A program made the translations under genes and the position numbers. From the NCBI GenBank assembly GCA_964371255.1, contig CAYJKV010000006.1, positions 9,806 to 73,805 on the forward strand: a stretch of DNA of 64,000 nt, in the 5' to 3' direction. The notes beneath the pieces are model-generated. The model had not been told where the DNA came from, did no database searches, and worked only from the letters and a program-made list of their open reading frames with translations. Source of the DNA: an uncultured Candidatus Saccharibacteria bacterium. GTDB taxonomy: Bacteria; Patescibacteriota; Andersenbacteria; UBA10190. The first letter of the stretch is position 1, and every line of letters begins with the position of its first letter. Positions 9,690-54,024 of the stretch are shown piece by piece.

Positions 9690-9850
9690 ATTATACCTGC
9701 ACCAACAGCCAGTCGAAGGGACTTAAATGGCATTTCAAGCTTAAAGGGATCCACCACTATTATTCCGTTCTCAACTATCGTTCAATTCAGCTCCACGGGT
9801 CGGATAGTATGGAGTAAATTCCTGACCCTAGTTCTGAAAACCAAACAAAC

Positions 9851-18514: not shown

Positions 18515-19117
18515 TCATTCCGCAAAGCGAACCTGAATTTGACGAATAAGCTCGTTATAAAGTCTGACTAGAAAACTGTTCCACTCCATTAGATTTCTAT
18601 CTTTCTCTACGGCTTCAATAATATTAAAGCCAAAGTGAGTGTGTCGTTGGCGCGCCAAGTCTTTATCAATCATGAGCTCATAGAGGTTTGGTGATATCTT
18701 ATCAATTGAATGAGCAAATTTTGCTTCACGAGATTTGTTGCGTTCAAATTCTTCATATATCGCATGATAATCTGCGGCAAGCTGGGAAAGTGCGGCTTCT
18801 CTTTCCGTCACAACCTCATTCTCAGTTTTTTGACGCTTCACAGTTAGAATATCGCCAGTAACTGTTTCGCCAATGTCATGAATGGCAAGCATAAGCAAAA
18901 CCTTGCCAATATCGAGCTCTTTTTCGCCTAGGTATGAGTACAAAAATGTAGCAACAATCGGTAGCGCGCCGATGTGGTCAGCAAGCGACTCGCGCATTAG
19001 ATTGCTGCCAGGTTCTGCTACGCCTTGGCCAACACGTGAAGGGAGATACGGTCCTCGATATACACCAGAATATCGTGCTAGTAAATCAAGCAATTTTGCC
19101 AGGCATTCTTTTTCCAT
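18515..19117 (-). CDS. HD-domain phosphohydrolase (YfbR-like 5'-deoxynucleotidase family)
   Basis: HD motif LMLAIHDIGETVTGD; ~200 aa from the internal Met; the longer ORF (to 19183) would overlap the tRNA 3' exon. Confidence 0.7.
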   Translation of the reverse strand: MEKECLAKLLDLLARYSGVYRGPYLPSRVGQGVAEPGSNLMRESLADHIGALPIVATFLYSYLGEKELDIGKVLLMLAIHDIGETVTGDILTVKRQKTENEVVTEREAALSQLAADYHAIYEEFERNKSREAKFAHSIDKISPNLYELMIDKDLARQRHTHFGFNIIEAVEKDRNLMEWNSFLVRLYNELIRQIQVRFAE

Positions 19118-19156
19118 CTGAAACCAATGTAACGCGTACGCTAAAAAAATAAAGAG

Positions 19157-19535
19157 CTCGCGGGGTCGGACTCGAACCGACAACCTAGTGGTTACATGTA
19201 ACCCATTATTTTCATAATGGCATGGACTATCTCATCACCCTTCCTTAATCAAGAAGGGGCTGGGCGCTTATGTAGGATTATTGTTGGAACTCACCTACTA
19301 GTCTCTACACCGGCCTTCGCCAAAACTTCAAACATGAAGTTTCCCAGCAAAGGATTGGCTCGGGATTGCCCTTCGACTCGTCGTCTGACGACTCGCTCAG
19401 GGTTTCCCCGAATTCACCCAGTTATTCGATCCGCCTCTCGACGGAAAGCTGCTATTTAACCCCCTCAATCCCCCTTATCAGGGAGAAGAAAGACTAATGT
19501 CACAGCCACTTGCTCTGCCATTGAGCTACCCGCGA
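19157..19535 (-). tRNA. tRNA-Asn(GUU) interrupted by an intron in the anticodon loop (exon 1 19502-19535, exon 2 19157-19194)
   Basis: Exons join into a canonical 72-nt tRNA: 7-bp acceptor stem (U1-A72), D arm gctc-aatggca-gagc, anticodon stem agtgg/ccact with loop CU-GUU-AA, variable loop aggtt, T arm gtcgg-ttcgagt-ccgac, discriminator G. Confidence 0.75.
19195..19501 (-). ncRNA. Group I-like self-splicing intron (~307 nt), no ORF
   Basis: 5' exon ends in U, intron ends in G; R-like gtgtagagactagta and S-like gagatagtcc can form P7 (gacta/tagtc); Q-like aatcccgagc; internal hairpin gaaacttcatgtttgaagttt. Confidence 0.65.
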
Positions 19536-37811: not shown

Positions 37812-39152
37812 TCAGCTTACTGGAGCATTGGCAGCGCCATCCCGTCGCAGCATCCAAGCCAGCACAATCGGGGGCAACACCGTACTGACAATAATCATAA
37901 TCACAATGACCGAAAACAAATCGTCTGTCACCACTCCTAATGACCGGCCGATAGTGGCAAAAATAAGTCCAACCTCGCCCCTTGGCACCATACCCCAGCC
38001 CACTAGCCATTTTCGTACATTACCCGCCACCGCGCCCGCCACGATTTTTCCAGCGAATGCCACCACCGTGATTCCTAAAGCTACCAATAACACCGGGCCG
38101 TTCATCAGTGTTTCCAATTTTACCCCCATCCCCGTCACCACGAAGAAGATTGGCACCAGAAAATAACCTAGCGGTTCTATTAAATCTTCGATATTACGTT
38201 CATTCTTGAAGAACCGGAAATGAACAGGATCCAGCACCAAACCTGCGGCAAACGCACCTACAATCGGCGCTAATCCTATCAGACTAGCTAACCACGCAAA
38301 AATTAAACCAAAACTAATCGCCAAAGTAAATTTCATGCCGCTGCCACTGTGCACGCGCGACAAGAGTTGCCCTAAACGAGGCGCTAGCAGTTGCCCTATC
38401 ACAATCGAACCCACCAGGAAAAGCACTGCCTTGCCTGTTATTAAACTAATCGCGCCAAAGCTAATCGCTCCCACCGTCACAATCGCCGAGACAACAGCTA
38501 ATATTATCAAACCTAAAACATCATCAATCACTGCGGCCCCCAGAACAATTTGGGCTTCCGGCATGTCCAACTTTTTCAAATCCTGGAATACCCGGGCCGT
38601 AATCCCCACCGACGTCGCAGTTAAAGCCGCGCCCAGAAATAGATAGGCGCTGGATGACAAGCCCGGCATCAGCCACGGACCAACTATGTATGTGCCTAGC
38701 ACAAACGGTACTACCACACCCACGCAGGCCACCAAAAAAGCCCGGACTCCTACTGCGCCCAACTTCTTAATATTAGACTCCAAACCAATTTGGAATAATA
38801 AAATTACTACCCCCAGTTCTGCCAGAAAAGTAATAATCGGACTATGCGTAATCGGCTCAAACATGTGCAGACCAAGCAAACCTAAGTTGCCCAGCACCAC
38901 ACCAGCTAACAACTCTCCTAACACTGCCGGTTGGCCGAACCGCTCCACCAGACTCGAGAATTTAGCTACCAACAACAGAATAGCAATCCATAGAAAAATC
39001 ACCGCCGACACCCCATGTTCCAAACCCTCCCCCTCTTCCGGTAAAGAAAATGCCGCCGCCATCGTCAGCACGACCAATATTATTCCCAGATAAATCAAGA
39101 CTAACGACCGCGACCCAACTTTGCTATTTGTTATTGAATCTAATGACTTCAT
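37812..39152 (-). CDS. Cation:proton antiporter, CPA2 (Kef/NapA-type)
   Basis: 12-13 TM; LGELLAGVVLGNLGLLGL and other CPA2 motifs. Confidence 0.85.
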   Translation of the reverse strand: MKSLDSITNSKVGSRSLVLIYLGIILVVLTMAAAFSLPEEGEGLEHGVSAVIFLWIAILLLVAKFSSLVERFGQPAVLGELLAGVVLGNLGLLGLHMFEPITHSPIITFLAELGVVILLFQIGLESNIKKLGAVGVRAFLVACVGVVVPFVLGTYIVGPWLMPGLSSSAYLFLGAALTATSVGITARVFQDLKKLDMPEAQIVLGAAVIDDVLGLIILAVVSAIVTVGAISFGAISLITGKAVLFLVGSIVIGQLLAPRLGQLLSRVHSGSGMKFTLAISFGLIFAWLASLIGLAPIVGAFAAGLVLDPVHFRFFKNERNIEDLIEPLGYFLVPIFFVVTGMGVKLETLMNGPVLLVALGITVVAFAGKIVAGAVAGNVRKWLVGWGMVPRGEVGLIFATIGRSLGVVTDDLFSVIVIMIIVSTVLPPIVLAWMLRRDGAANAPVS

Positions 39153-39444
39153 ATAGAATAACTAATTTTCGAATTACATTAGCGTATACGGATAAATGAG
39201 ATTGTCAATAATCACAATTTTTATCATTTACACTCCGCTATTAGTAACGACTAGATAAGAGACCATACAGAGAGAGATTCTCCTGCAGTAAATCTCCTGA
39301 CGGAAATTTCATCCGGGCCTGGCCTCACAGTGCTCGCCTTGCTCTGATGGGCAAATTCGCCCAATACTCCCGCCCTTCTCATTCCAACGAGAGTGACTTA
39401 ACGTCACTCACTCTCTCCTCCTCACAAAACTTCTTATTTCTGGA

Positions 39445-39586
39445 GGGCCGCTAGAGTTAGGTACCCGTACAGTTCAGTGTGTTGAAGCTTTTACTGAAGG
39501 TCAATTCGAAACACAAACTGAGGCATGTGGGTTGGGGTATTATAGGAAGCAAACGGAACAAATGGGACAGTATAAAAAGAGTTTGT
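39445..39586 (+). repeat. ~140-bp direct repeat copy A (about 88% identical to 44043-44173)
   Basis: 54-nt identical core agttaggtacccgtacagttcagtgtgttgaagcttttactgaaggtcaattcg plus a conserved 3' part aacggaacaaatgggacagtataaaaagag. Confidence 0.9.
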
Positions 39587-39729
39587 TCTGTGTTTCCCTT
39601 ACTTTCTTTCACATTCTATTGCCATGTATAACCTTCACTTAAGCTGCATAAGAACGATGACTTACTTACAGTATGATGATACTGTTAAGCGTGGAGGGCA
39701 CTGGGTATTAATAATTAATTCTCAACTAC

Positions 39730-40311
39730 ATGAATAAACGAAATTTGTTATTAGGCGGTGGAATAGCAGCTACTCTCTTTGCACTGGTAGCTGGTGCTCC
39801 ATTATACGCAGCCATTAATGATATGGCAGCCGACTATGGCCGGTCAGTTGAATTCGTGCCTCTCGTGCGGCACATGATGAGCCAGGTGCACTGCTATGAC
39901 ACTGGCACGGAGGACTGTGAAGAGGCTGACCATATAGGTACCACTTTCACGAAGGAACATACGCTGGGATTCCTCCTCGATGGCTCAAAGAGTAAGATGA
40001 CCGCGCTCGGCTTTAAACCAGTCTATCTCTGCGAAGCTCGCGATGATAGCGGTGTCATGATGGTGACCGGTGGCTTGCTCGAGAATAATCCCAAGGCAGC
40101 CTGTCGTGCAACCGGATTCCGTTATGACCACGTAGGCTATATTTCTACCACAAACCAGATTGAGGCACCGTGGGCCTTGTATCGCTGCCTGCATCCAGAT
40201 ACCCACGACACGCTGCTGACGGATAATCAGGGAGAATGCGCCGCGCAGAGTTATGATGCAGCCGAATTGCTAGGTTACCTATACGCTGGCGGACCCAGCG
40301 TCGCTGATTAG
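39730..40311 (+). CDS. Secreted Cys-containing hypothetical protein
   Basis: Signal peptide; 8 Cys; no known motif. Confidence 0.45.
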   Translation: MNKRNLLLGGGIAATLFALVAGAPLYAAINDMAADYGRSVEFVPLVRHMMSQVHCYDTGTEDCEEADHIGTTFTKEHTLGFLLDGSKSKMTALGFKPVYLCEARDDSGVMMVTGGLLENNPKAACRATGFRYDHVGYISTTNQIEAPWALYRCLHPDTHDTLLTDNQGECAAQSYDAAELLGYLYAGGPSVAD

Positions 40312-40364
40312 GTTTCCCCGCGTAGTAGAAGACAGAAAGCTGGGTCATCCGACCCGGCTTTCTT

Positions 40365-41138
40365 TTACTCAAATCTCAATGTATCTAAAATAGCTCGCAC
40401 TAACGGATTCTCTCCACGTTCTTCGGCTACACCATGGCTGATTTCTATCCTCACATCATCTTCCTGGAAAAACCAGAAAATCTCGCGGTCAAAAATTTGA
40501 TTGTAATCTTCCCGCAAGCACCCTTGAAAGAGTCTCATTCCGGTAAGTTCAATCTCAGAGCCAGAAATATGCTGGTATGAGACTGGAATAACCCTTGGTA
40601 CGTTGTTGTTAATTTTCTGTGATTCTTCTTGTAACTTCTGAATGAACTCCTCGATCGATTCCTTTTTGTGACCTGGCTCGCATTGTTCACCGAGAAGCGA
40701 TAGCTCATAGCCGGAGATTTGGAAGAATAGTGCTGCATAGAGTGCGCTAGGTGGAGCTTGCGCAGTAAGAGAAATCTTATCGGCAACCTCGGGGTTAGTA
40801 CGGTTCATAGTGCTGGTCCAACCTTCAAAGGTGATGCCAGGCGGATATTGAAAAGAATAGCCATACTTCATGTTCGTGAACCGGGGCCAGGCTGTCGTAT
40901 CAAATTGTTCCGCTTGTGCGCTATCTACTAAGCTTACTAATTCGTCAGGGGTAATCTCTTCCACTGTCTCGAATGGAGCATTGCTGGGAATCGGCTGCGG
41001 CTTGTTCTCTTGCCACTTAAGTAACGGTGCTATCAGAGCCAACCACACTACGATACCGATAATGGCTATAAGACCTATAACTGCAACAATGGACTCTAGT
41101 CTGCACATACGCTGCTTACCATAGTATACTTTCCTCAA
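40365..41138 (-). CDS. Membrane-anchored hypothetical protein
   Basis: N-terminal TM helix (IVAVIGLIAIIGIVVWLALIAPLL); rest hydrophilic. Confidence 0.4.
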   Translation of the reverse strand: MRKVYYGKQRMCRLESIVAVIGLIAIIGIVVWLALIAPLLKWQENKPQPIPSNAPFETVEEITPDELVSLVDSAQAEQFDTTAWPRFTNMKYGYSFQYPPGITFEGWTSTMNRTNPEVADKISLTAQAPPSALYAALFFQISGYELSLLGEQCEPGHKKESIEEFIQKLQEESQKINNNVPRVIPVSYQHISGSEIELTGMRLFQGCLREDYNQIFDREIFWFFQEDDVRIEISHGVAEERGENPLVRAILDTLRFE

Positions 41139-41704
41139 TGAACCAAAGAATTCAACAAATGATAAAAGTCGCGATCATAGCAGTGAGTACGAGCGCGATG
41201 TATTATTCTGGACCCTTATTTATTGCCGCAGTCTTGGGGCACGGCTTCTTTTCAGGTTCCCGTCTTGCGCCACTCTTGGCCGCTACTTATGGATTGCTTG
41301 CTTCATGGTATGTCGCTAAGAAACTGTTAGAAAAATCTGCTGATATTCCTATAAAACAGAAGCTGGGCATTGCGGCGATTACTTTGGTCGTAGCGGTGGT
41401 TGTGCTCGGTCGGTTTTTCTTTGCCCAACTGGCGTGGATAGGATTGAGTTTAGTCGGAGGGCCTTTAACTTTCCGGTCTGTTCTAATGGCAGTTACATCA
41501 TCACTCTTTTTATTGATAGCTGTGTGGACTGCCGTGTATCACGCGATTGCTGTCTGGCGCGCTACAAAAAGTAGTGTCTTCAGAAATGCTGATTCATTGC
41601 TTGATCCGATTGTTATTTGTTTAACTTTGAGCTTGGTTATTCTGTCGTGGCTCTCCATATTTATGGAGCCCGTATTCGATCTGCTTAAGAGGATAAGTTG
41701 GTAA
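41138..41704 (+). CDS. Integral membrane protein, unknown
   Basis: 5-6 TM helices. Confidence 0.4.
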   Translation: MNQRIQQMIKVAIIAVSTSAMYYSGPLFIAAVLGHGFFSGSRLAPLLAATYGLLASWYVAKKLLEKSADIPIKQKLGIAAITLVVAVVVLGRFFFAQLAWIGLSLVGGPLTFRSVLMAVTSSLFLLIAVWTAVYHAIAVWRATKSSVFRNADSLLDPIVICLTLSLVILSWLSIFMEPVFDLLKRISW

Positions 41705-41784
41705 TACTATCCGACTAACGAACCACCTGTCCTAAGTCGCTTAAGGTTGACCGCTGCATTACGTAATGGCACAGTGTACTTGTC

Positions 41785-42144
41785 ATGCAAGGCCAAATTA
41801 AAAAGCTATTAATTGCGGGGATACCATTGCATGTAGCCTTATTCATGATAGTGGGACGAGATGCATCAGAACTATTCTTGCCAAACTTTATTGAGGAAAT
41901 ATCAGAATTGATGTGGCAAGCCACAATTTTTCTCAATTTCATCGTGATACTTATACCAAGAGAGATTTTGATTGATGTCGGCGTACTCAGCTGTCGAGTA
42001 GAATGGGATGGTTGGTGTTGGATAACACCTCATGCTTTAATTGTATTTGCACTACTTCTTAGTGCAGGTATTTACTTTATATTCACCAAGGTCGAAAAAA
42101 TAAAAAAAGGGCCGCGCCATAATAGCACAGCCCCAAAGAACTAA
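41785..42144 (+). CDS. Small membrane protein, unknown
   Basis: 3 TM helices; weak call. Confidence 0.3.
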   Translation: MQGQIKKLLIAGIPLHVALFMIVGRDASELFLPNFIEEISELMWQATIFLNFIVILIPREILIDVGVLSCRVEWDGWCWITPHALIVFALLLSAGIYFIFTKVEKIKKGPRHNSTAPKN

Positions 42145-42185
42145 AGGAAGGATAAAAGGGATAAAAGGAGTTCGACTTCACGAAA

Positions 42186-42602
42186 ATGATCCTCTGCGGT
42201 GGCTGCGGGGATGGCATCACGGCCGAGGAAAAATTTAAAAAGCGCGGGGATGGCTCAATCAAAAAATATGTGTACTACCACTGCAGTCGATTCGACTACA
42301 CCTGCAAACAGCCGTATGTGCGTGAAGATGAACTACTATCTCAAATACTTCAAATAATCGATAAGGTAGACTTTAATAAACTGGGAATTCAAAAGAAACT
42401 GGAAATCGAAACACAACGACTACAAAAATTCAGTCTTGGAATATTGCAACAAAATCAAAAAATTGTTGTGCCGAAAGTGGACACGAGAACTTATGCCAAA
42501 TACTTACTGCAGGAAGGGACGCGAGAGGAAAAGCGAGAGTTACTCTCTTGCCCGAAAAGCAAACTGAAATTTATAGATGGCAAATTACTGATTAGCGATT
42601 AG
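42186..42602 (+). pseudogene. C-terminal fragment of a large serine recombinase (zinc beta-ribbon + coiled coil); catalytic resolvase domain absent
   Basis: CGGCG...YYHC zinc-ribbon motif followed by a coiled coil, typical of the large serine recombinase C-terminus; no upstream catalytic domain in frame. Confidence 0.5.
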
Positions 42603-43322
42603 CTCCTTTTTAACAATCCACTTGGATTCATCGGTCGTTAAAACAAGTACATCGATATTCCCTCCAACGTTCTTTGGACGCGCCTGAAATCTCATAGTGT
42701 CAATTGTCGTACGTATTGCATATATTGAAAAATCTATCGCATCTTGAAGCGCCATCGCATCCCAAATAATCGGAGCCACCCCTCGCAGAACTTTCTGTTG
42801 GCCATTCGCATTAACAATAACGGGATTCATTAAGTTTGTAAGAATGTCAGCTTGGCCTGACCATGTGCATCCAAATGCCGAAGACCCGTCTGGCTTTAAG
42901 TTTCTCCGCTCATGCTTATCTTGTTTTATATGAGTATATAAAACATAAGGCACACTTACTTTACCCTCTTTTTTGTATCCACACACATGAAAGCCCGTAT
43001 CGACTTCACCAAACTCTTTTTTGATAAAGTTTTTTAACTTCCTAGCGACACTTTCTACATCGTCCTGTTCTTTAAGTAATTCCTCGCTAAAACGTCTTAT
43101 GTGACTAGCCATTGGTACACCTCCTAGTAAATCTTGGCCGAAGCTAGAAATACCAATACCTTGTTTCTCAAGGAAGAAAGTCTTCGTAACGTTATCAGAA
43201 TTAGTAGTCTCCACATTGAAGGACTTACCCTCAGGATTAGTACCGCCAATTGTAACTGACTGCCGACTATCGGAGGCCATTACAATGCCTTCAGGAACAT
43301 AAGTGGCTATAACAAGTGACAT
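42585..43322 (-). CDS. Ntn-hydrolase of the proteasome beta-subunit/HslV-like (peptidase T1) type, Ser as putative N-terminal nucleophile
   Basis: MSLVIATYVPEGIVMASDSRQS aligns with the T1-x15-D17 pattern of proteasome beta subunits (TTIvg.kf.dGVVlAaDsRat); Lys near position 33. Confidence 0.45.
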   Translation of the reverse strand: MSLVIATYVPEGIVMASDSRQSVTIGGTNPEGKSFNVETTNSDNVTKTFFLEKQGIGISSFGQDLLGGVPMASHIRRFSEELLKEQDDVESVARKLKNFIKKEFGEVDTGFHVCGYKKEGKVSVPYVLYTHIKQDKHERRNLKPDGSSAFGCTWSGQADILTNLMNPVIVNANGQQKVLRGVAPIIWDAMALQDAIDFSIYAIRTTIDTMRFQARPKNVGGNIDVLVLTTDESKWIVKKELIANQ

Positions 43323-43325
43323 AGT

Positions 43326-43877
43326 TTATGAATTTTTAAACATTAAATAGATCCCCATGAAAGCTAGGACTGTTTCGGGGTAACTCCATGATTGAAGAGT
43401 GGAAACAGCGCCAAGGAATAGAAAAGCACAAGCGATAAAAAACGATTTCCGCGCCGTCTCAGGGCTAAGCGTTGAAAGAGCAACACCTGTGTCGGCAAAG
43501 GCATTCTTAAATTGGACTTTGAGATTACTCATTTCTTGCTTATGTCCCACTGACTGGTCGGTACTTGTTGGCTGGTTGCTGGGCGCGGCAACCTGGGCGG
43601 AAGAAGAGGATCCCGAACTTGAGTACTCAAAACCTATCCAATGGATGTAGCGCTTAGCCTCTGCTGTTAATTCGAAAGGGCTCTCATTACGGTTCTTCAG
43701 TTTTTGGTATTCCAATAGACCCTTTGCCCGTAAACTAAGAAGGCGATCATAAGTCGATACGTGAGATTTAAGGCCAAGCTGATCCGTGAGTTCCCTCAGC
43801 GTAGGAAACCGATCCAATGTCTGCTCCATAGCTCCTATGACCTGTAAGGTCTCCAGCTGTTTTCCAGTTAGGTCCAT
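43326..43877 (-). CDS. LexA-type winged-HTH DNA-binding domain fused to a C-terminal membrane region
   Basis: N-terminus LTGKQLETLQVIGAMEQTLDRFPTLRELTDQLGLKSHVSTYDRLLSLRAKGLL resembles LexA_DNA_bind; Ser-rich linker; C-terminal 2 TM helices; no LexA peptidase domain. Confidence 0.45.
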   Translation of the reverse strand: MDLTGKQLETLQVIGAMEQTLDRFPTLRELTDQLGLKSHVSTYDRLLSLRAKGLLEYQKLKNRNESPFELTAEAKRYIHWIGFEYSSSGSSSSAQVAAPSNQPTSTDQSVGHKQEMSNLKVQFKNAFADTGVALSTLSPETARKSFFIACAFLFLGAVSTLQSWSYPETVLAFMGIYLMFKNS

Positions 43878-44042
43878 ACCTAAATGATACTCTTCCCTGA
43901 TGGGGACGCAAGGGTATTAAATTAAATCCCTGTGCTTGGACAAAATTGAACCGACAAGAGAATAGAATTCGAACCTTTCAAAACCTAAGTAGGTGGGTCA
44001 TTTAGACCCAAAACTATCGGGCGGGCCACGTGAGTTAGGTAC

Positions 44043-44173
44043 CCGTACAGTTCAGTGTGTTGAAGCTTTTACTGAAGGTCAATTCGGAAGTGAATTTCAG
44101 GCATGTGGGTTGGGTTATTTTGGGTGTAAACGGAACAAATGGGACAGTATAAAAAGAGTCTGTTCTGTGTTTC
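44043..44173 (+). repeat. ~140-bp direct repeat copy B
   Basis: Matches 39445-39586. Confidence 0.9.
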
Positions 44174-44219
44174 ATTTGCATATATGTTTATTTTGTGGTG
44201 ATGTATGTTGTTCCTGCAT

Positions 44220-44615
44220 CTACAGGCTGGCTAACAGTTTCTTCACTCGGGTCTCAATAATATCTCGGATGGTGCGTATTTCTACTAAATCCTTCCCTTC
44301 TGTATTATCAACATCCCAGTCCTCAATCTTTGCTTGAATGATCGGAGAAAAAGCAAGCTTCACCAAACAGCCAAAGGAGATAAGGCGATCGTATTGATCA
44401 GCAGTAGCTGGATCAAATAACTTGGGCTTGTTTGTGGAAACATCGATGCCTTTTTCTTGCATAGCTGCCACGACAATAGGATTCACTGCTGGAGCAGGCA
44501 TCGTCCCGGCACTTTCTGCACCGAAATCTGTTCCAACAGCGAAGGTATTAAAGAAAGCCTCGGCCATTTGAGAGCGGCCGGCGTTTTCAGCACAAACAAA
44601 GATAATCTTTCTCAT
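44220..44615 (-). CDS. arsC: Arsenate reductase, LMW-PTPase (thioredoxin-coupled) type
   Basis: P-loop CAENAGRSQMAE (CX5R) at the N-terminus; 131 aa. Confidence 0.8.
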   Translation of the reverse strand: MRKIIFVCAENAGRSQMAEAFFNTFAVGTDFGAESAGTMPAPAVNPIVVAAMQEKGIDVSTNKPKLFDPATADQYDRLISFGCLVKLAFSPIIQAKIEDWDVDNTEGKDLVEIRTIRDIIETRVKKLLASL

Positions 44616-44661
44616 TGCCTAAAGTATATCGGTAATATGGAAAATTGTGTCGCATAAATCT

Positions 44662-45723
44662 TTATGTGAGCGTGTCCAAGGCTTCATGTGTTTGTTGAGT
44701 TTCAAAGAAAGGTCTTAATCGCAAAGCAACGCTTACTAATAATATCAGCACCGGCACTTCAATTAATGGCCCAATCACAGCCGCAAAGGCCACCCCGGAA
44801 TTAATACCAAACACAGCAACTGCCACGGCAATGCCAAGCTCAAAGTTATTGCCCGCCGCCGTGAACGCTAGTGCCGTACTCTTGGGATAATCCGCGCCTA
44901 CTCTCTTTGATATGAAGAAAGCGGAGAAAAACATGACGATAAAGTAAATTATTAGCGGAATCGCTATGCGCACAACATCAAAGGGTATCGTCACAATAAC
45001 ACTGCCTTTCAGTGAAAACATGACAACGATTGTGAAGAGCAAGGCGATAAGTGTTAAGGGGCTAATCGCCGGCAGAAAGTATTGTTTGTACCAAACTTCT
45101 CCCTTGGACTTTAAGAGGGCATAGCGAGTGGTAATTCCCGCTATAAAAGGAATGCCTAAATAGATAAAGACACTTTTCGCAATTTCAATTATACCCACGT
45201 CCACAATACTGCCCTGCAGACCAAACAGTGCCGGCAAAACAGTCACAAAAATATAAGCATACACGCTGTAAAATAAAACTTGGAACAAGCTGTTAAACGC
45301 AACCAGACCGGCCACATAGTCATTATCCCCGTGCGCTAAATCTGTCCAGACCAGCACCATGGCGATACATCGGGCAATTCCTATCATTATCAGACCCACC
45401 ATATACTCCGGATAATCTCTAAGGAAAAATATGGCCAGGAAAAACATAAGCAACGGTCCGATTATCCAGTTCTGCAAAAGAGAAAGCCCAAGAATCTTTT
45501 TATCCTTGAATACCTTGCCTAGTTCTTCGTAACGAACTTTTGCCAAAGGCGGATACATCATCACGATTAATCCAATGGCTAGCGGGATACTAGTCGTGCC
45601 AACACTATAACGATTAATGACACTCCCAACCTGCGGAAAATAATGGCTTGAAGCTATGCCTGCAGCCATAGCCAAAAAAATCCAAAGCGTTAAGTATCGG
45701 TCTAAGATGGAAAGTTTTTTCAC
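44662..45723 (-). CDS. acr3: Arsenite efflux transporter, ACR3 family
   Basis: 10 TM; N-terminus [19 protein letters not shown] typical of Acr3. Confidence 0.85.
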
Positions 45724-45731
45724 GACAACTG

Positions 45732-46469
45732 TTATTTAAGCGCCGAGAACGTAATGCTAGACGCATATTCCGGCAAGAACGCAGGAATTTCTTTGTGGAT
45801 TTCAACGCTCTGAAAACCGGCCTTTCCTAAGAGGTTAAGATACTCCTGTTTCAAAATGGCACCGCTAACGCATCCGGTTAACAATTCCTTATCATTTTTT
45901 AATTCATCCGGCAAAGGTTTCTTCAAAACAACATCAGAAATCATGAGCCTGCCACCTGCTTTCAACGCCCTATACGCTTCGCGAAAAACCTTTTCTTTGT
46001 CAGGAGCCAAATTAATCACGCAGTTCGAAATAATTACATCTACTGATTCGTTATCAACCGGCAACGCCTCAATGTCTCCCTTCCTAAACTCGACATTTTG
46101 ATAATCATTCTTCACTGCATTCGCCCTGGCTTGCACAAGCATCTCGTCAGTCATGTCAACACCAATCACCCTGCCGGCATCGCCGACTTTGTCAGCCGCC
46201 AGAAAGACGTCAATGCCGGCTCCCGAACCTAAATCCAAAACGACTTCTCCGGCTTTCAATGATGAGATAGCGACCGGATTACCGCAGCCAAGCCCTAGGT
46301 TTGAGCCCTCTGGTACTTGCCGCATCTCATCTTGAGAATATCCCATTTCTCGCGACTGTAGCTGCACAGTCCGATTAGCGTTGCACCCGCAGCTGCCGCA
46401 ACCAGAAGCTCTGGCAATGTTGGCATACGATTCCTCCACGATTTTCTTTACTTCTTTTGGATTATTCAT
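45732..46469 (-). CDS. arsM: Arsenite S-adenosylmethionine methyltransferase
   Basis: SAM motif [13 protein letters not shown]; conserved Cys pairs (GCGSCGC, GLGCGNP, SNCVINL) of ArsM. Confidence 0.8.
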
Positions 46470-46780
46470 ATTTTTATCTTAAGAATTAGGTTGGTAATTT
46501 CTTTACCTTTTGGTGTTAAAGAGTAATAAGACCATTTGCCGTCCCTCCTGTCCGTCACTAACCCGCCGTCCTTAAGGTCTTTCAGGTGATGCGAAATGAG
46601 GCTTTGGGAAAATTTAAGATGCTCCATTAACTGGCAGACACAGTGTTCGCCATTTTTAAGCATAAGGACCAACTGCAGGCGGCTGTTTTCAGACACAAGC
46701 TTTAGCAGTGCCGCAACTTTTTTCACATCTCTATATTCGGTTATATCAACACGGCAGCAATCATATGAACACATGCTCAT
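46466..46780 (-). CDS. arsR: ArsR/SmtB family metalloregulator
   Basis: HTH with metal-site CVC ([11 protein letters not shown]...SHHLKDL). Confidence 0.85.
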
Positions 46781-46842
46781 ATATTAAACCAGCACTAAGT
46801 TATTTACAATTCAGAGCCAGCTAAATAGGATATCGCTAAAAA

Positions 46843-47802
46843 CTATAGAACCGCATTAAACACAAACCCGATAATCATTATCCCCGTAGCTACCAAACCA
46901 AAAAAGGTTAGTAGCAGGGGTAATTTAATAGCCTTTTTCAAGATAAGCGCCTCCGGCAAAGACAGCCCAACCGTTGCCATCATAAAGGCCAAGGCCGTGC
47001 CAAGCGGAACGCCTTTATCAACCAGCGACTGCATAATCGGAAAAACACTGTGAGCGCTGGCATACAACGGCACACCCGCGATGACTGCTAATGGAACTGC
47101 CAGTAGGTTATCGCCCCCAACGTACTTTTCAAAAAATCCTTCAGGAACATATCCATGTATTGCTGCGCCGATACCGATCCCCGCCAATACGTACGGCACA
47201 ACTTTTTTCGTAATGCTCCATGCTTCTTTGGATACGTCTTTGAGTATGGGTAAGGATAACGGCGACCAGCCCACGTTTATAGCCGCCGGCCGTATTTTCG
47301 TCTCCATAATATAGTTTTCAACATAACGCTCCATCTTGAGACGGCTCATAATATAACCGCCCAAGGAGCCAAGCACCATGCCTGCTCCGACGTACATGGC
47401 CGTTATCTTCCAGCCGAATAACCCAATGAAAAGCGCCACCGCCACTTCGTTAATAAGCGGTGACGTAATGAGAAAAGCGAACGTGACGCCGAGCGGTATG
47501 CCCGCGCCCACAAAGCCAATAAACAAAGGAATAGACGAGCAGGAACAAAACGGTGTGACGGCTCCAAAAATTGAGGCTAGCACATACTCCAGCCCGTACC
47601 ATTTCCGCTTAGTCAAAAAATCCCGTAGCTTCTCTACTGGCAGGTAATAACGAAGCAGACTCATAAAGAACGTAATAACCAGCAGCAGCAGCACAATTTT
47701 TATGCTGTCATACACGAAAAAGTTAACGCTTTGCGCCAAGCCGGATCCCGTTTCTAAATTAAGCGCGGTGTAAGTAAGCCAATCCGCAAACTGTTGAATC
47801 AT
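46843..47802 (-). CDS. arsP: Organoarsenical efflux permease ArsP-like (DUF318 permease)
   Basis: TPFCSCSSIP motif (the ArsP TPFcSCS signature); 8 TM. Confidence 0.7.
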   Translation of the reverse strand: MIQQFADWLTYTALNLETGSGLAQSVNFFVYDSIKIVLLLLVITFFMSLLRYYLPVEKLRDFLTKRKWYGLEYVLASIFGAVTPFCSCSSIPLFIGFVGAGIPLGVTFAFLITSPLINEVAVALFIGLFGWKITAMYVGAGMVLGSLGGYIMSRLKMERYVENYIMETKIRPAAINVGWSPLSLPILKDVSKEAWSITKKVVPYVLAGIGIGAAIHGYVPEGFFEKYVGGDNLLAVPLAVIAGVPLYASAHSVFPIMQSLVDKGVPLGTALAFMMATVGLSLPEALILKKAIKLPLLLTFFGLVATGIMIIGFVFNAVL

Positions 47803-47909
47803 AAATTACAGGTTAATGAGAAATAAAATAAAGCAATATGTGCATTGATAAAACTATTTGACCTTATACGGTTTGAACTTTTTGTTAATAGGCGTTTTGA
47901 TAAATATTT

Positions 47910-48308
47910 TTAATAAGCCAAATCGTCTTTTCTTTGCTCCAGCTCTGTTTTGACGTTTTTAAATACGCCGGTTTCTTTCACGATTCTTTGCGCTTTGTCT
48001 CTCGGTGTATCGTCGTCTTCGACAAAACTGATCGCTCCGACCGGGCAGAGATTGGAGCAGGTGATGCAGGCTACCATGCAATTATTCGGATTGACCACTT
48101 TAGACTTTTTATTTTTGTAATCAAACTTATACACGCCTCGGCCGCAACTGGTGGCGCACATGCCGCAACCAATGCATTTTGATTCGTCTATCACGGGATG
48201 CCAGTCTATCTTATCGCGGTCAATGCCGTGAAATTTAGTAAACTTCGGGTCTTTGTTTGATGTTTCCATAGTGTTTTGATTTAAATAATAATTATTATTT
48301 GACTTCAT
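47910..48308 (-). CDS. 2x[4Fe-4S] ferredoxin-domain protein
   Basis: CIGCGMCATSC and CMVACITCSNLCP cluster motifs. Confidence 0.7.
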   Translation of the reverse strand: MKSNNNYYLNQNTMETSNKDPKFTKFHGIDRDKIDWHPVIDESKCIGCGMCATSCGRGVYKFDYKNKKSKVVNPNNCMVACITCSNLCPVGAISFVEDDDTPRDKAQRIVKETGVFKNVKTELEQRKDDLAY

Positions 48309-48828
48309 ATACCTCGAACTTTTTGTTCCGCAGATACCATTCCATTAAATACCCGACGACGATAAACAGGGGCAGGGCGACAAGCGTCCTCGCCAAGGTA
48401 AATTTCAGTCCCAAATATCCTATTTCAATTCCCAGCATCGGAATCTTGAGGGTTGAAAACGCCCCGAGATAAATAAAGATATTTTTCACGCTGGCTCCTT
48501 TCTCGTAAAGAATGTAAGCCACGGGAAATGCGCCATAGAGAGGCCCAGCTTGAAGCGTGGCTAAAACTATTACGGCCAGCATGCCCATGATGCCGGAGTC
48601 CTTGCCAATATATTTTTCTATCTTTTCTTTCGGAAACCAGACATCAAATAAGCCGACAATGATAAACAGAAACGGAATAAAAATGATCATTTCAATAAAC
48701 GATTCGGTAAAACTCCGGTAGATTGTTTTGCCGGGATCAAATCCAAACCAAAAGGAAACGATGCCAAAAACGGCAAAACTCGCGAGCCAAATGTACGGTT
48801 TCATTTTTTGGAATGCTTTCTTGGTCAT
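48295..48828 (-). CDS. Permease half-protein (split two-gene permease, C-terminal module)
   Basis: 5 TM; overlaps its partner by 4 nt (translational coupling). Confidence 0.5.
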   Translation of the reverse strand: MTKKAFQKMKPYIWLASFAVFGIVSFWFGFDPGKTIYRSFTESFIEMIIFIPFLFIIVGLFDVWFPKEKIEKYIGKDSGIMGMLAVIVLATLQAGPLYGAFPVAYILYEKGASVKNIFIYLGAFSTLKIPMLGIEIGYLGLKFTLARTLVALPLFIVVGYLMEWYLRNKKFEVYEVK

Positions 48829-49364
48829 AGAATAATTCCGATTAAAACGCCGATGATAATGGCGGCCGCAAAATTCAAAACATTCCGCAGTATGGCGATC
48901 TTTTTGCCAAAATATTTGGTTTCAAGCGGTAAGGTCACGACTCCGACCATCATCAGCGTTGTCATAAAAACAGCGACTGTGGAATAAGAGGCACCCTGTT
49001 TTACAAGGCTGGCGGCAATCGGATAAGAAATAAATCCGGGGATAAGAGTGATGGAGCCGACAACTGCGGCGATCGCAAATCCGACGACACCCGAACCGGC
49101 TCCCAAGTATTCGGTTATCAGTCGCGGAGGAATAATAAACAGCAATAAGCTGACCAGCATCAGGATATTCAGAAACGGGACGATGATATTTTTAAACATC
49201 CTGAACCCTTTTTTAAAGCCTAGTATTGTCTTATCTTTATCCAACAGGAACGAGACTAAGCTCGTGGAAACTGAGAAGGTGATAAAGATTAAAGCGTTGT
49301 TCATAAAAATATACTTGGGACTAGTTGCAATGCTCGCATTTAAGCTCGATGTTTTTTGATTCAC
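48825..49364 (-). CDS. Permease half-protein (N-terminal module)
   Basis: 5 TM; paired with 48295-48828. Confidence 0.5.
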   Translation of the reverse strand: MNQKTSSLNASIATSPKYIFMNNALIFITFSVSTSLVSFLLDKDKTILGFKKGFRMFKNIIVPFLNILMLVSLLLFIIPPRLITEYLGAGSGVVGFAIAAVVGSITLIPGFISYPIAASLVKQGASYSTVAVFMTTLMMVGVVTLPLETKYFGKKIAILRNVLNFAAAIIIGVLIGIIL

Positions 49365-50208
49365 CCTCGGAGGTCATCTGCAAGGTGGAATGCCTAATGC
49401 GAAATTTTTCTTGCAGTAACTTCTGAACGGCGGAAAGCAATGACCCTCGCTCTCCGGCGTTTAATTCGCCTATTTTCAAATGCGCGCTTAAATATCTATT
49501 GTCCGTTCCAGTCTGCCAGATATGGAGGTCATGGATGCCTTCAACTCCCAACGTCGCCGCCAACGTTTTCTGAACTTCATTGAAATCTATATCAGAAGGC
49601 ACAGAATCAAGCATCATGTTGAGCGACTTAATGACTATCTTATAAATCTCTTTAAGAAGAAAAACGGAGATTAAGATAGACAACGCCGGATCAATCCAAT
49701 TCCAGCCGGTGAAATAAATCGCCACCGCTCCGATAATCACCGCCAAAGAAAAGATGGCATCTTGCAAGGAGTGAAGCCATGCGCTTTTTAAATTTAAGTT
49801 ATTATGGGCATCTTTTTCCAAAAGATACGTAGCGATTCCGTTTCCGATCAGGGCAACGCCAGCAACAACCATCATCTGTACTCCAGCTACCTCCGTCGGA
49901 TGAAACAACCTCTTCACCGCTTCAATGACGATAAAAATCGTGACCGCCAGCAAAATCCCGCCGTTCGTGAAAGCAATAATAACTTCAGCTCGCTTATAGC
50001 CGTAGGTCTTTCGGTCATTGTTAGGCCAAGAAGACATCTTCTCTCCCCACCAGCTTAAAACCATTGACCCGATATCCGTGATGTTATGTAAGGCGTCCGA
50101 GATTAAAGCCATGCTTCGCGAAAGCAGGCCAAAAATAATTTCAAAAATAACTATTCCGATGTTTAGGAAAATTGAAATTGTTAGATTTCTACTGTTGTGC
50201 TTTTCCAT
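49321..50208 (-). CDS. Cation diffusion facilitator (CzcD/ZitB-like) metal efflux protein
   Basis: 6 TM + C-terminal cytoplasmic domain; SDALHNITD motif. Confidence 0.85.
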   Translation of the reverse strand: MEKHNSRNLTISIFLNIGIVIFEIIFGLLSRSMALISDALHNITDIGSMVLSWWGEKMSSWPNNDRKTYGYKRAEVIIAFTNGGILLAVTIFIVIEAVKRLFHPTEVAGVQMMVVAGVALIGNGIATYLLEKDAHNNLNLKSAWLHSLQDAIFSLAVIIGAVAIYFTGWNWIDPALSILISVFLLKEIYKIVIKSLNMMLDSVPSDIDFNEVQKTLAATLGVEGIHDLHIWQTGTDNRYLSAHLKIGELNAGERGSLLSAVQKLLQEKFRIRHSTLQMTSEGESKNIELKCEHCN

Positions 50209-50209
50209 T

Positions 50210-50926
50210 TTAGAGATTTATCAGGTATTGAATGAGATATCGCAGGTAGTAAGCCCCCACTGCCAAAAATGTCACTGCCACTGTATAACGAACAACCTTT
50301 TCAACCTTGCCGACAATGTTGAACACGGCGCTTAAACTCGACACACTATACGCGAGCAGAAGCGACATAACTAGTACTGGTAATGCCGTACCAATAGCAA
50401 ATAGTGGCGCCAGTAGTAATCCGCCGTTAGTCTTAAGCACTAAAGGCACTAAGACACCGAAAAAGAGCACGCCGCTATAAGGACAAAAGGCCAAGGCAAA
50501 TATCATCCCTAGCAATAGCGGACCTAAATACGGCCAAGCCGCCAGTTTTTCTTTCCACCGCTCAATATGATCGCTATGAAGCCGCACTGGCAGTTTAATT
50601 AAGCCCAGCAATACTAATCCGATGAGTATCAACACCGGCCCCAGCACTTTATCGCCCCATCCTACAAAAATACGAGCTACGTTCACTGAAGCAAAACCGG
50701 CATACAGCAAAACCAAAATAAAGGAATACGATAACGCTCGCCCTAATGTGTAAAGCACGCCACTCCAAAGCGTATATTTAGCCGATTGAAGCTTACGCGC
50801 CATAAATGCAACGGCCGTAATATTAGTCGCTAACGGACATGGGCTAATGGAGGTCATTACACCCAACAAAAAAGCGGTTAGAAACGGAATATTGCTCTGC
50901 TCTATGAGCGATGACAGCATCGACAT
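50210..50926 (-). CDS. CcdA/DsbD-type thiol-disulfide transmembrane electron transporter
   Basis: SPCPL redox cysteine motif in TM1; 6-8 TM. Confidence 0.75.
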   Translation of the reverse strand: MSMLSSLIEQSNIPFLTAFLLGVMTSISPCPLATNITAVAFMARKLQSAKYTLWSGVLYTLGRALSYSFILVLLYAGFASVNVARIFVGWGDKVLGPVLILIGLVLLGLIKLPVRLHSDHIERWKEKLAAWPYLGPLLLGMIFALAFCPYSGVLFFGVLVPLVLKTNGGLLLAPLFAIGTALPVLVMSLLLAYSVSSLSAVFNIVGKVEKVVRYTVAVTFLAVGAYYLRYLIQYLINL

Positions 50927-50936
50927 ATATCAACCT

Positions 50937-51467
50937 TTACTCAATGCAACAGTCAATCGCTTTGCGCACCAGGCCACGTAATTTGCCCATGAAGCCCTGC
51001 GGTTCGCTATCATGACGATTCACAGCCTCATCGTCTATCCGCTTCACCTCGCCAATATCAACAGCCTTCATGTTGATGCCCCAGAACAGCGAATAAAGGT
51101 CATACGATTTCTGGAACAAATCCTGCGCCTCTTTTTTATTACCCATTGCTTCCTGTTTGGTTCCTACCTCCATTAAGCGCATAGAAGCCGCCAGTAAATG
51201 TTTTGAGATACACCACACTTCACCTTCGTACTCTTGAATGAGTTGTTTTAATAACGCTTTGCGCATGTCGCGCACTTCCTTAAGCAAGTCGTAGTACTCC
51301 GGCTTGCCCGTTTTCGCACCGGTGAAGAAAAAGTGCTCTTCGATACTGACCAGGTTCATGATAGCAATACTCAAATCCTGGTCGGACGACAAGTCCATCT
51401 TGTCTTTCTTTTTACTCTCCATGACTTTTTCGACAAATTGCTCCACATCGAGTGTTGGTTTTTGCAT
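50937..51467 (-). CDS. Hypothetical soluble protein
   Basis: Intact ORF in the operon; no motif recognised. Confidence 0.4.
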   Translation of the reverse strand: MQKPTLDVEQFVEKVMESKKKDKMDLSSDQDLSIAIMNLVSIEEHFFFTGAKTGKPEYYDLLKEVRDMRKALLKQLIQEYEGEVWCISKHLLAASMRLMEVGTKQEAMGNKKEAQDLFQKSYDLYSLFWGINMKAVDIGEVKRIDDEAVNRHDSEPQGFMGKLRGLVRKAIDCCIE

Positions 51468-51474
51468 AGTGGTT

Positions 51475-52035
51475 TTATGAATTAGTGATGAAATAAAAAA
51501 TGATGCTTAGGATAACGAGTGGCAACGTGGGCATAACCACCTTCTGAAACGGAAAATACGCGTGCCCGTAGTTACGCTGCTTGAGCGCATAATAAAGCGA
51601 GCCGCCAAGCCAAAATGCCACGCTGCCGACAACCACACCAACCAATAGTTTATCAATCCCCCAGAGCGTATTGAATGGATGGCCGATAATGCCGCCCCAA
51701 TACAGCGGCACAAGAGTTAGAAGGTAATAACCAACCGTCACAATTAGCGCATCACCACGGAACCGCCACGTTTTCTTAGCAAGCCAATTCATCGTCCACA
51801 TCGTAAACGAAACTATCAGACCACCTACCCATAAGCCAGATACCGTATCATCAATGCCAAGCCAACGTGATAGTCCTAAACCAGCACCTACCGCCACCGT
51901 ACATACCGGACACACGGCTTGAGCCGCTTGTCCGAAGCCAGCCCATACTATCATTGCTAATACTAACAATAAGAAATTATATATTTTCATAAAGTTTGTC
52001 GTTAAAGAACTTTTTAATATCTTCATCACCGACAT
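51475..52035 (-). CDS. Membrane protein with CPVC motif
   Basis: 5 TM; periplasmic-side CPVC pair; possible thiol-redox or metal-handling role. Confidence 0.4.
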   Translation of the reverse strand: MSVMKILKSSLTTNFMKIYNFLLLVLAMIVWAGFGQAAQAVCPVCTVAVGAGLGLSRWLGIDDTVSGLWVGGLIVSFTMWTMNWLAKKTWRFRGDALIVTVGYYLLTLVPLYWGGIIGHPFNTLWGIDKLLVGVVVGSVAFWLGGSLYYALKQRNYGHAYFPFQKVVMPTLPLVILSIIFYFITNS

Positions 52036-52765
52036 AACAAATATCGTTAGCCCACAAAAATGGCACGCCGACAGCGCCGCCAGGAATATCGCACGCTAAC
52101 GCTTTCTCCTCCAGCAGCGTCGCGTTATCGCGACTATGGTAAACTTCACGTTTTTCAAACGTGACTTTTTCCGCAACTTTATTCTCTTCTAAATACTGGT
52201 CAAGAATGGCGCAATGCGGACACCCATCACCGAAGAATAAAATGATATCTGACGCGATCGGGGTTGTGCTTACTTCCATTGCTGCAGCAGTTGGTAATAA
52301 CAGGGTGAGTTTTTGAGTAAGGTAGCTTTCGAAGGCTGGCTCGTCTGAGAGTAATTGCCACACTTTGGTATCTTGTTCAATATGATCAACCCCCGACGCG
52401 ACAGCGTTTACATAAAGGGAGGAGCCATATGCCATGTATTTTTGGGCAATATTTTTATTTTCCGGTAAATCAACATTTACTTCTTGAAAGGTCATGCGTC
52501 CAGCAGCTAAGTCCTGCGCAAAATTCTTTTGGATCGTTTGTGAGGTAAGCTTGCTCAACATCAAACACGAGGAGCACCGTTGTGTGGCGTGAAAATACAC
52601 CACGTCCACGCGGTCAGAAAGTTGTGCGGACTTGCTCATGTTTTCACCCGCAATGACCGCGGGGGTTACTTCTGGAGACATGCCGCCATCTCTTGTCCCT
52701 GCCCACCATACGAACACCGCCAATATCCCAACTACACCTACAATTGGCAGATATTTATTATTCAT
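51977..52765 (-). CDS. Membrane-anchored thioredoxin-fold protein (CxxC)
   Basis: N-terminal TM; CPHC and RCSSC motifs in thioredoxin-like modules. Confidence 0.55.
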   Translation of the reverse strand: MNNKYLPIVGVVGILAVFVWWAGTRDGGMSPEVTPAVIAGENMSKSAQLSDRVDVVYFHATQRCSSCLMLSKLTSQTIQKNFAQDLAAGRMTFQEVNVDLPENKNIAQKYMAYGSSLYVNAVASGVDHIEQDTKVWQLLSDEPAFESYLTQKLTLLLPTAAAMEVSTTPIASDIILFFGDGCPHCAILDQYLEENKVAEKVTFEKREVYHSRDNATLLEEKALACDIPGGAVGVPFLWANDICYVGDEDIKKFFNDKLYENI

Positions 52766-53007
52766 GCGGATAGGGAACTTAAAATCGTTTTCGCTTCATC
52801 CACACTCGCCACCTTGCCCGCCAATTTAACTTCTTCGTCAATAACTAGCGCCGGAGCAGACATAATACCGTAGCTTACGATGTCGGCGATGTTGGTGACT
52901 TTTTCAAAGATAGCGTCGTCAATGCCAAGCTCTTTAGCCGCCTGCCTGACGTTCTCCTCAAGTCTCTGACAACTGGGACAACCAGTGCCTAATATTTTAA
53001 TGTTCAT
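52762..53007 (-). CDS. Small thioredoxin-family protein (redox-active disulfide protein 2 type)
   Basis: MNIKILGTGCPSCQRL N-terminal CxxC; 81 aa. Confidence 0.65.
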   Translation of the reverse strand: MNIKILGTGCPSCQRLEENVRQAAKELGIDDAIFEKVTNIADIVSYGIMSAPALVIDEEVKLAGKVASVDEAKTILSSLSA

Positions 53008-53897: not shown

Positions 53898-53937
53898 GTA
53901 TATATTATCCGCAAGAGCCCTGAGCTTGTCGAAGGGC

Positions 53938-54024
53938 GGAGAGGGTGGGATTCGAACCCACGGTCCGTGTGAACGGACTCCGGTTTTCAAGACCGGTGCA
54001 CTAGTCCACTATGCGACCTCTCCA
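53938..54024 (-). tRNA. tRNA-Ser(UGA)
   Basis: Minus strand folds into a cloverleaf GGAGAGG...anticodon loop CU-UGA-AA...long variable arm...T arm GTGGG-TTCGAAT-CCCAC-CCTCTCC-G. Confidence 0.85.

Follow-up and report, generated by a model that had tools for sequence, protein, structure and literature searches.

Two long direct repeats enclose about 4.6 kb of DNA in a stretch of 64,000 nucleotides (hereafter the window) on contig CAYJKV010000006.1 of an uncultured Candidatus Saccharibacteria bacterium (assembly GCA_964371255.1), and the remnant of a large serine recombinase (LSR) gene lies between them. The question raised by this locus is whether the repeats are attachment-site (att) scars left by an integrative element, as an earlier note on this DNA had proposed, or something else that accompanied the recombinase. 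Our analysis revealed that the repeat is a module belonging to a previously undescribed non-coding family, which is confined to DNA of the Patescibacteria (candidate phyla radiation, CPR) type, and that this module stands directly upstream of decayed LSR genes in other contigs. The explanation that we prefer, with a confidence that is about even, is that LSR-type mobile DNA left this segment behind as a dead remnant, now fixed, and that its repeats are full-length LSR-associated leader or cis-site modules.

Two copies of one module bound the segment

Exactly two copies of the repeat were found in the window, both on the + strand and in direct orientation, at 39442-39598 and 44020-44175. Each is about 155 nt long, and the two are 88% identical across 158 nt, with a 1-nt indel in the left copy; the right copy is a same-strand paralogue of the left one, which runs from a 5' X block (GGAGGGCCGCTAGAGTTAGGTACCC) to a 3' hairpin. 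In shuffled sequence, 0 matches would be expected for such a pair, and neither sequence profiles nor a covariance model detected a third copy in the window. The similarity is unevenly distributed. A core of 55 nt is identical in the left/right alignment (39454-39508 = 44032-44086, + strand), and further downstream the copies agree again over 32 nt (39551-39582 = 44128-44159), differ at one position and agree over another 13 nt; the differences are concentrated in the middle stretch, 39509-39550. The direct repeats of about 140 bp described in the earlier note are therefore real, and so is the arrangement of identical core, conserved 3' block and diverged middle that it reported; the core is one nucleotide longer than the 54 nt given there, and the start given for the right copy (44043) was placed about 20 nt too far right. 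The right copy lies 143 nt upstream of a LexA-like gene, divergent from that gene, and on its 3' side is the 3' end of a convergent arsC gene.

The module as a family

The known family comprises about 10 sequences, all of which come from CPR-type contigs. An exact scan of the JGI metagenomes with the 3' block yielded one contig with a single full-length copy (L012), to which the left window copy is homologous over its full length (L012:428-611, E 8e-60). One more full-length homologue, on a 3-kb contig (P0122), was found by an exhaustive protein search with the translation of the + frame. Pattern scans of the GTDB genomes and of IMG/VR added three members carrying the 3' domain and the X block, namely L013 from a WWE3 metagenome-assembled genome (MAG), L015 from a Curtissbacteria MAG, where the module is at the contig start, and L057 from an IMG/VR contig flagged as viral. 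The module is a single-copy orphan in all five of these contigs. All other matches of the pattern scans were rejected as coding or chance; several IMG/VR scans, for example, gave L057 as one true member together with many chance or coding matches. The module is very rare: 1 exact match was obtained from 241 M metagenome records, 596 Gb of genomes yielded 2 true matches, and an exact scan of the GTDB genomes with the 5' core gave 0 matches.

We also asked whether the module corresponds to a known RNA. The comparison with Rfam that the earlier note had suggested returned no family for either copy in Rfam 15, at the gathering threshold or even at E<=10, and none in the homologous loci; ARAGORN likewise found no tRNA or tmRNA at the repeats or in those loci. 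A known RNA family, a tRNA and a tmRNA were rejected on these grounds. BLAST searches of phage and plasmid collections found no match to the module, and nothing was found for the motif in the literature. Apart from the LSR, no cargo is common to the window segment and the family loci.

Two side observations concern individual sequences. In L012, a reverse transcriptase (RVT_1) and a divergent bAvd-like protein adjoin the module (1353-2764), which are hallmarks of a diversity-generating retroelement (DGR); no template/variable repeat pair was found on this 2.8-kb contig. In addition, a 182-aa database 'protein' (P0127) composed of four repeats of about 27 aa (MRSRSSTREGWPD.RRTCSIFHLHL) has a weak match to the 3' end of the repeat in translation (CSVFHLH); this 'protein' has the appearance of a tandem DNA repeat that was translated.

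The module stands upstream of decayed LSR genes

The LSR remnant of the window (42161-42602, + strand) retains the zinc ribbon and the coiled-coil/C-terminus. The sole matches of its 138-aa open reading frame (ORF; 42186-42602) were the recombinase zinc-ribbon domain PF13408 (E 1.9e-7) and the integrase family phrog_95, which bears out the C-terminal-only LSR fragment recognised in the earlier note. Homology to relatives of intact length opens at KEFDFTK, some 8 codons before the ATG (42186), and its loss (at about 42140) coincides with a terminator hairpin at 42108-42134. The missing catalytic part, which the earlier note had suggested looking for, did not turn up: tblastn with both domains found no resolvase catalytic domain and no recombinase domain elsewhere in the 64 kb.

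The 138-aa fragment has 23 homologues in the databases, all of them short (84-240 aa). Five independent loci (L119, L120, L121, L122 and L124/125) were selected solely for encoding such homologues, and three of the five carry the module directly upstream of the decayed LSR, at a distance of 60-400 nt and in the same orientation. The module occupies 6665-6990 in L119, where the LSR starts from 7236; in L121 the corresponding positions are 1792-2113 and 2177, and in L124/125 they are 7495-7640 and 8001, with module and LSR (a fragment in L124/125) on the same strand in each case. A covariance model built without L119 scores L119 at E 1.9e-8. Because the module is so rare in very large collections, its adjacency to LSR genes is not a product of chance. 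Furthermore, L119 and L121 are 83% identical over exactly the module plus the LSR (1.7 kb), while both flanks are unrelated; this homology opens at the 5' edge of the module, 270 nt before the hairpin.

Every member of this LSR clade that we examined, including that of the window, is broken. The L119 gene is split into three frameshifted ORFs, that of L121 has one in-frame TGA in place of a zinc-ribbon cysteine, that of L122 contains a frameshift, that of L120 is truncated by an IS630-type transposase, and that of L124/125 is without a catalytic domain. This pattern indicates either that the clade consists of dead elements in CPR genomes or that there is something systematic in how these genes are read.

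Anatomy of the module and covariation of its hairpin

All members open with the G-rich X block (GGCGGAGAGGGTGAGTCCAGAACC in L119 and L121, GGAGGGCCGCTAGAGTTAGGTACC in the window) and end in a tandem 9-mer of the form R1-AAT-R2-GTA (e.g. GGAACAAAT GGGACAGTA). The general form of this tandem is NNNACA-AAT-NNNACA-GTA, which is accompanied by one or two complementary arms, TGTNNN. After the 9-mers come a purine-rich loop, the arms complementary to R1/R2 (TGTTCT and TGTTTC) and then a U-rich stretch. Across lineages, the triplets that vary in R1 and R2 do so in concert (GGA/GGG, GGG/GGG, GAG/GAG). In L119 (6790-6990) and L121 (1920-2113) we also observed that three to four tandem sub-units expand the module to about 330 nt; each sub-unit reads NNNACA-(G/A)AAT-NNNACA-GTAC...GGGG and has its own triplet (TGG, GTT or GAG), and the extra tandem units carry the triplet pairs TGG/TGG and GTT/GT(T/G).

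In the left window copy, the 3' hairpin (39545-39597, + strand) covers R1 (GGAACA, 39555-39560), R2 (GGGACA, 39564-39569), arm1 (TGTTCT, 39584-39589) and arm2 (TGTTTC, 39591-39596). In the right copy, the hairpin (44124-44181, + strand) has a minimum free energy (MFE) of -19 kcal/mol (z -3.5), with R1 at 44132-44137, R2 at 44141-44146, arm1 at 44161-44166 and arm2 at 44168-44173, and a 7-bp outer stem (GUGUAAA/UUUGCAU) is added to it. Folding gives the long hairpin as the MFE structure of the right window copy, L012 and L119 (z between -3.5 and -4.3), and the module contains an imperfect palindrome of about 45 bp.

The pairing of R1 with arm1 was conserved in 7 of 8 sequences (91.7% of cells), and two of its pairs, in five cells, show double changes, a level reached by 1 of 500 shuffles; slid controls were 35-58% paired. 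Five sequences possess a second arm, and in each of them R1 and arm2 are 100% paired. In the three sequences of full length, one pair of the outer stem is A-U, U-A or G-C, and in a stem of the 5' domain G·U and U·G pairs are replaced by A-U and C-G. The hairpin arms co-vary as a unit, also in the copies adjacent to LSR genes, and all non-Watson-Crick pairs of the core stems are G·U on the + strand. Because compensatory changes occur and the G·U pairs lie on the + strand, an RNA of that strand is favoured over a symmetric DNA site, and these comparisons of sequence favour a predicted structured RNA read from the + strand. The alternative that the earlier note had offered, a duplicated structured RNA or regulatory element, is thus closer to the evidence than its first proposal, with the RNA part receiving moderate support from covariation.

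The site in the population and in relatives

The Na+/H+ exchanger gene on the left flank was used to place the organism. Its cluster at 90% identity contains proteins of Candidatus Andersenbacteria and Parcubacteria MAGs, and these homologues place the organism in the Patescibacteria. Through searches with three proteins, the locus was recovered in more than 22 contigs of the same population from an ENA metagenome series. The repeats were 100% identical across these contigs, with one case of 99.6%, and the segment was present in every contig that spans the site. Exchanger homologues of 68-77% identity are found in unrelated contexts with no synteny. The search for an unoccupied site that the earlier note had recommended thus met only occupied sites in the population, and the relatives reached through the exchanger share no synteny with the locus. 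Assembly breaks near 39071-39222 were considered as possible evidence of an empty site and set aside as uninformative, since they fall in AT-rich sequence away from the repeat.

Weighing the origin of the segment

Under the preferred explanation, the module would travel with one LSR clade as a leader or regulatory RNA, as a cis-acting site region, or as both; it would be transcribed from the + strand and would serve the recombinase. In the window, the recombinase would have been reduced to its last 138 codons, leaving 4.6 kb fixed and immobile. The segment may have originated as a single element with modules at both ends, whether carried from the start or acquired, or as a pair of neighbouring cassettes that suffered truncation or loss of their recombinases. 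The two repeats could mediate a deletion of the RecA type, and no such allele was seen. As regards the att-flanked, decayed island proposed in the earlier note, decayed mobile DNA fits the LSR remnant and the module upstream of LSR genes in three loci, while attL/attR scars do not fit the full-length copies and the mosaic pattern described below.

Several observations weigh against this explanation. The family consists of about 10 sequences, of which several are close relatives of one another, and this keeps the covariation statistics modest (8-9 sequences, moderate support); the pairing register R2:arm1 is no better than shuffles, and L015 has no 3' arm. No convincing promoter was found, and the invariant block does not fit any sigma-70 geometry. 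Only weak -10-like hexamers precede the X block, and a U-rich tail follows the hairpin. In the window itself, 2.6 kb separate the left copy from the LSR remnant, and the right copy is followed by nothing that resembles an LSR. Neither an empty site nor a single-module allele was found among the more than 22 population contigs, and the reachable relatives are not syntenic. There is also no compositional difference in GC between the segment and its surroundings: the segment, which had been called AT-rich, has a GC content of 44.1% (0.441) compared with 46.1% (0.461) for the window, and 0.471 and 0.445 for the left and right flanks. The GC skew shifts across the segment because its genes occupy both strands. 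Finally, five members of the family are without an LSR in their available DNA, so the module may also exist independently of LSRs.

These five members (L012, beside the DGR reverse transcriptase and Avd, together with L013, L015, L057 and P0122) speak for a first rival, which we judge rather improbable: a stand-alone small RNA family or regulatory module with no tie to recombination, which accumulates in variable regions rich in mobile genetic elements and was paired in the window by local duplication. Also in its favour is the structural covariation of the module, whose G·U pairs lie on one strand, and convergent genes follow the module in the right window copy, L057 and P0122, so that it is not always a gene leader. 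What this rival explains poorly is that a very rare module stands directly upstream of an LSR in three of five independent loci, which is hard to obtain by chance, and that the unit conserved between L119 and L121 is exactly the module plus the LSR.

Crossover by serine integrases takes place at a core of 2 bp and creates no long direct repeats, and known LSR att sites measure 40-50 bp with a 2-bp crossover in common. This knowledge bears on a second rival, in which the repeats are the attL and attR of a once-integrated circular element that recombined with a chromosomal copy of the module, the 55-nt core being the crossover region. The geometry is suggestive, in that direct repeats enclose a segment with an integrase remnant, the identical core has diverged sequence on either side, the module is LSR-adjacent elsewhere, in the usual place of attP or attL, and the orphan single copies could be unoccupied targets. 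However, as is established for integrases of the phiC31/Bxb1 type, strand exchange needs no homology and would not generate repeats of about 155 bp, and both window copies are full length relative to L012. A hybrid origin was also rejected by a three-way comparison with L012, in which agreement runs along the element as right copy, then both copies alike, left, mixed and right again, which is a mosaic with no single switch. In the 55-nt core, L012 differs at 12 positions where both window copies agree. Since the window copies are identical there, a recent duplication or gene conversion within this genome is indicated, and the perfect core would stem from that event and not be a crossover scar. 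In addition, the hairpin, whose arms co-vary as a unit in LSR-adjacent copies, is not a hybrid junction; the L119/L121 homology begins at the module edge, well ahead of that hairpin; no tyrosine integrase or shift in composition accompanies the segment; and no empty site was found in the population contigs or the relatives reached. We therefore regard attL/attR scars as unlikely.

A third rival, which we consider quite doubtful, attributes conservation of the module to coding. Its 3' block would encode a micro-protein or leader peptide of 16-29 aa (M-x-Q-M-x-Q-Y-K-K-G-V-(S/F)...), or the whole element would encode a Cys-containing protein of about 65 aa in a + frame. Most members do have an open frame with an ATG, TTG or ACG start and a purine-rich stretch 3-5 nt upstream; between the window and L121, the changes in the micro-ORF are K->R twice and three synonymous ones; and the long + frame is open in the right window copy, L012 and P0122. 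In the left copy, however, this long frame has a 1-nt indel and no start codon, and both strands are open at the repeat. The pN/pS ratio (nonsynonymous to synonymous differences) of the micro-ORF frame is no lower than those of the other two frames (0.64, 0.66 and 0.81), 25 nt are invariant across distant lineages with zero synonymous variation, and neither sequence, length nor hydrophobicity relates the tails of the peptides to one another. Exhaustive protein searches of 1.8 billion representatives gave one homologous ORF call and low-complexity noise. A protein-coding small gene was rejected for these similar pN/pS values in all frames and the near-empty searches. The codon-position bias at the repeat is insignificant, and no homologues were found for the 46-aa ORF on the minus strand of the repeat.

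A more far-reaching proposal is that the module is a structured RNA acting with LSRs as a cofactor, specificity determinant or switch, with the concerted triplets of the 9-mers as recognition elements. It finds a parallel in the bridge RNAs of IS110, the seekRNAs of IS1111 and the omega RNAs of TnpB and IscB, which are likewise structured elements beside a recombinase gene (about 110-330 nt for our module) that move with the gene, and whose short repeats recall the concerted triplets of the module (GAG/GAG, GGG/GGG, GGA/GGG, TGG/TGG). Unlike these systems, whose partners are enzymes of the DEDD or RuvC type, the module is coupled to serine recombinases, and no complementarity of its triplets to any target or donor site was found. 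We regard this proposal as highly unlikely; if true, it would describe an RNA-assisted serine recombinase parallel to the IS110 bridge RNAs. The template/variable pair of a DGR was dismissed as a source of the two copies, given that their differences are not adenine-specific (of the 13 internal left/right differences, only 6 affect an A of the left copy, and an A of the right copy is never affected) and that the segment contains no reverse transcriptase.

Comparison with known systems and significance

The LSR elements best known, such as prophages of the phiC31/Bxb1 type, elements of the SPbeta/skin type and SCC cassettes, resemble the locus in having the LSR gene (here a remnant) inside a repeat-bounded segment. 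They also have a conserved non-coding region beside the 5' end of the LSR gene, the normal place of attP or attL, and the palindrome of about 45 bp in the module is approximately the size of an att site. The differences are that the boundaries in the window are full family copies of about 155 nt that also occur alone, that the mismatches of the palindrome are all of the G·U type on one strand, suggesting RNA, and that no intact recombinase is known.

The res sites of Tn3 and gamma-delta offer another comparison. They too form a module of about 120-160 bp, made of short repeated motifs and placed directly upstream of a serine-recombinase gene, and two direct copies enclosing DNA is the geometry of a resolvase substrate. 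In Tn3, res doubles as the operator of the recombinase gene. However, those systems have small resolvases with a C-terminal helix-turn-helix and a DDE transposase, neither of which is present here, and the motifs differ, so this is a resemblance only. Islands inserted in tRNA or tmRNA genes share with the locus direct repeats that derive from a conserved structured non-coding element and contain one perfect stretch. In those islands, duplication is limited to the 3' part of the gene and there is a tyrosine integrase, whereas the window has full-length copies and no tRNA or tmRNA at them.

Decayed integrative elements are common, and LSRs are important tools of genome engineering. The point of interest is therefore the repeat, which is conserved, has no Rfam match, probably has an RNA structure and is coupled to one LSR clade. 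LSRs are generally regarded as purely protein-guided and as requiring no more than short att sites in the DNA. An element of about 110-330 nt that travels with LSRs suggests either a new form of regulation, such as a leader RNA for the integrase, or a more complex recombination site. If the module is a leader or operator only, it would be a modest addition; if it takes part in recombination, it would be a significant surprise. In either case, it may serve as a marker for mobile DNA in the genomes of CPR bacteria, whose mobile elements have been charted poorly so far.

Genes of the segment and its flanks

Seven ORFs were found between the two repeat copies. From the left, they encode a 193-aa Cys-containing protein with an N-terminus resembling a signal peptide and without family assignment (39730-40311, + strand), a 257-aa ORFan with a hydrophobic N-terminal segment (40365-41138, - strand), a 188-aa multi-pass membrane ORFan (41138-41704, + strand) and a doubtful hydrophobic product of 119 aa (41785-42144, + strand), which is a gene call in some assemblies only. 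No family was found for these four ORFs. The LSR remnant follows, and beyond it are two genes on the minus strand. The first encodes a 245-aa protein of unassigned family (42585-43322), for which no significant match was found in Pfam, NCBIfam, PADLOC, PHROGs or PDB. Its residues 1-26 have a sub-threshold match to the connectase N-terminal domain (E 0.08), which is a weak hint of a connectase/proteasome-like N-terminus, and its single-sequence AlphaFold model was unusable (pLDDT 35); the proteasome-beta-like Ntn hydrolase that the earlier note saw here comes down to that hint. The second encodes a 183-aa protein (43326-43877) with a LexA-type winged helix at its N-terminus and a hydrophobic C-terminus, in agreement with the LexA-type DNA-binding membrane protein described earlier, and no S24 peptidase domain was found in it. 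The hairpin at 42108-42134, which resembles a strong intrinsic terminator on the minus strand (12 bp followed by a T-run), probably ends the operon formed by the genes for the LexA-like and the 245-aa proteins.

The exchanger gene on the left flank (37812-39152) and, on the right flank, the gene for an arsC-type low-molecular-weight phosphatase (44220-44615) both lie on the minus strand. The latter is the last gene of a long arsenic/metal-resistance cluster (44220-53000, - strand), which runs from the right repeat towards a tRNA-Ser(UGA) gene (53934-54024, - strand). The cluster contains arsC, an ACR3-type SBF protein, an ArsM-like methyltransferase, ArsR, ArsP permeases, a ferredoxin, a cation efflux protein, DsbD and a thioredoxin. 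It may itself be accessory DNA, and it would be unusual cargo for a CPR genome.

Other features of the window

A tRNA-Asn(GUU) gene with a 307-nt intron at anticodon positions 34/35 was found at 19156-19535 (- strand) by ARAGORN with introns allowed; default ARAGORN did not call this tRNA. The intron is of group I, with an Rfam match at 19203-19468. Group I introns in bacterial tRNA genes are, to our knowledge, known for Leu, fMet, Arg and Ile, and their presence in an Asn gene looks unusual. A 222-aa HD-domain 'ORF' (18515-19183) overlaps the 3' half of this tRNA, and its real start is therefore probably further downstream.

About 700 nt downstream of the intron-containing tRNA gene, a 60-nt direct repeat (12509-12568 and 18431-18490, 97% identical) encloses 5.9 kb with a sigma-70-like gene, a ParB-like gene, an M23 peptidase and an 865-aa protein with PHP and an SMC-type ATPase. 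The GC content falls to 0.33-0.39 in part of this segment, and 12509-18490 may be a better-looking island candidate than the segment at 39442-44175.

At 60817-60980, a 21-nt unit (ATTCAACAAAGTCGATGACCG-like) is present six times in tandem, and it probably corresponds to a 7-aa repeat inside an ORF. A region of lower GC content (0.39-0.42) at 8414-10621 (- strand) encodes a patatin-like phospholipase and a protein with TPR and rifampin ADP-ribosyltransferase (Arr) domains.

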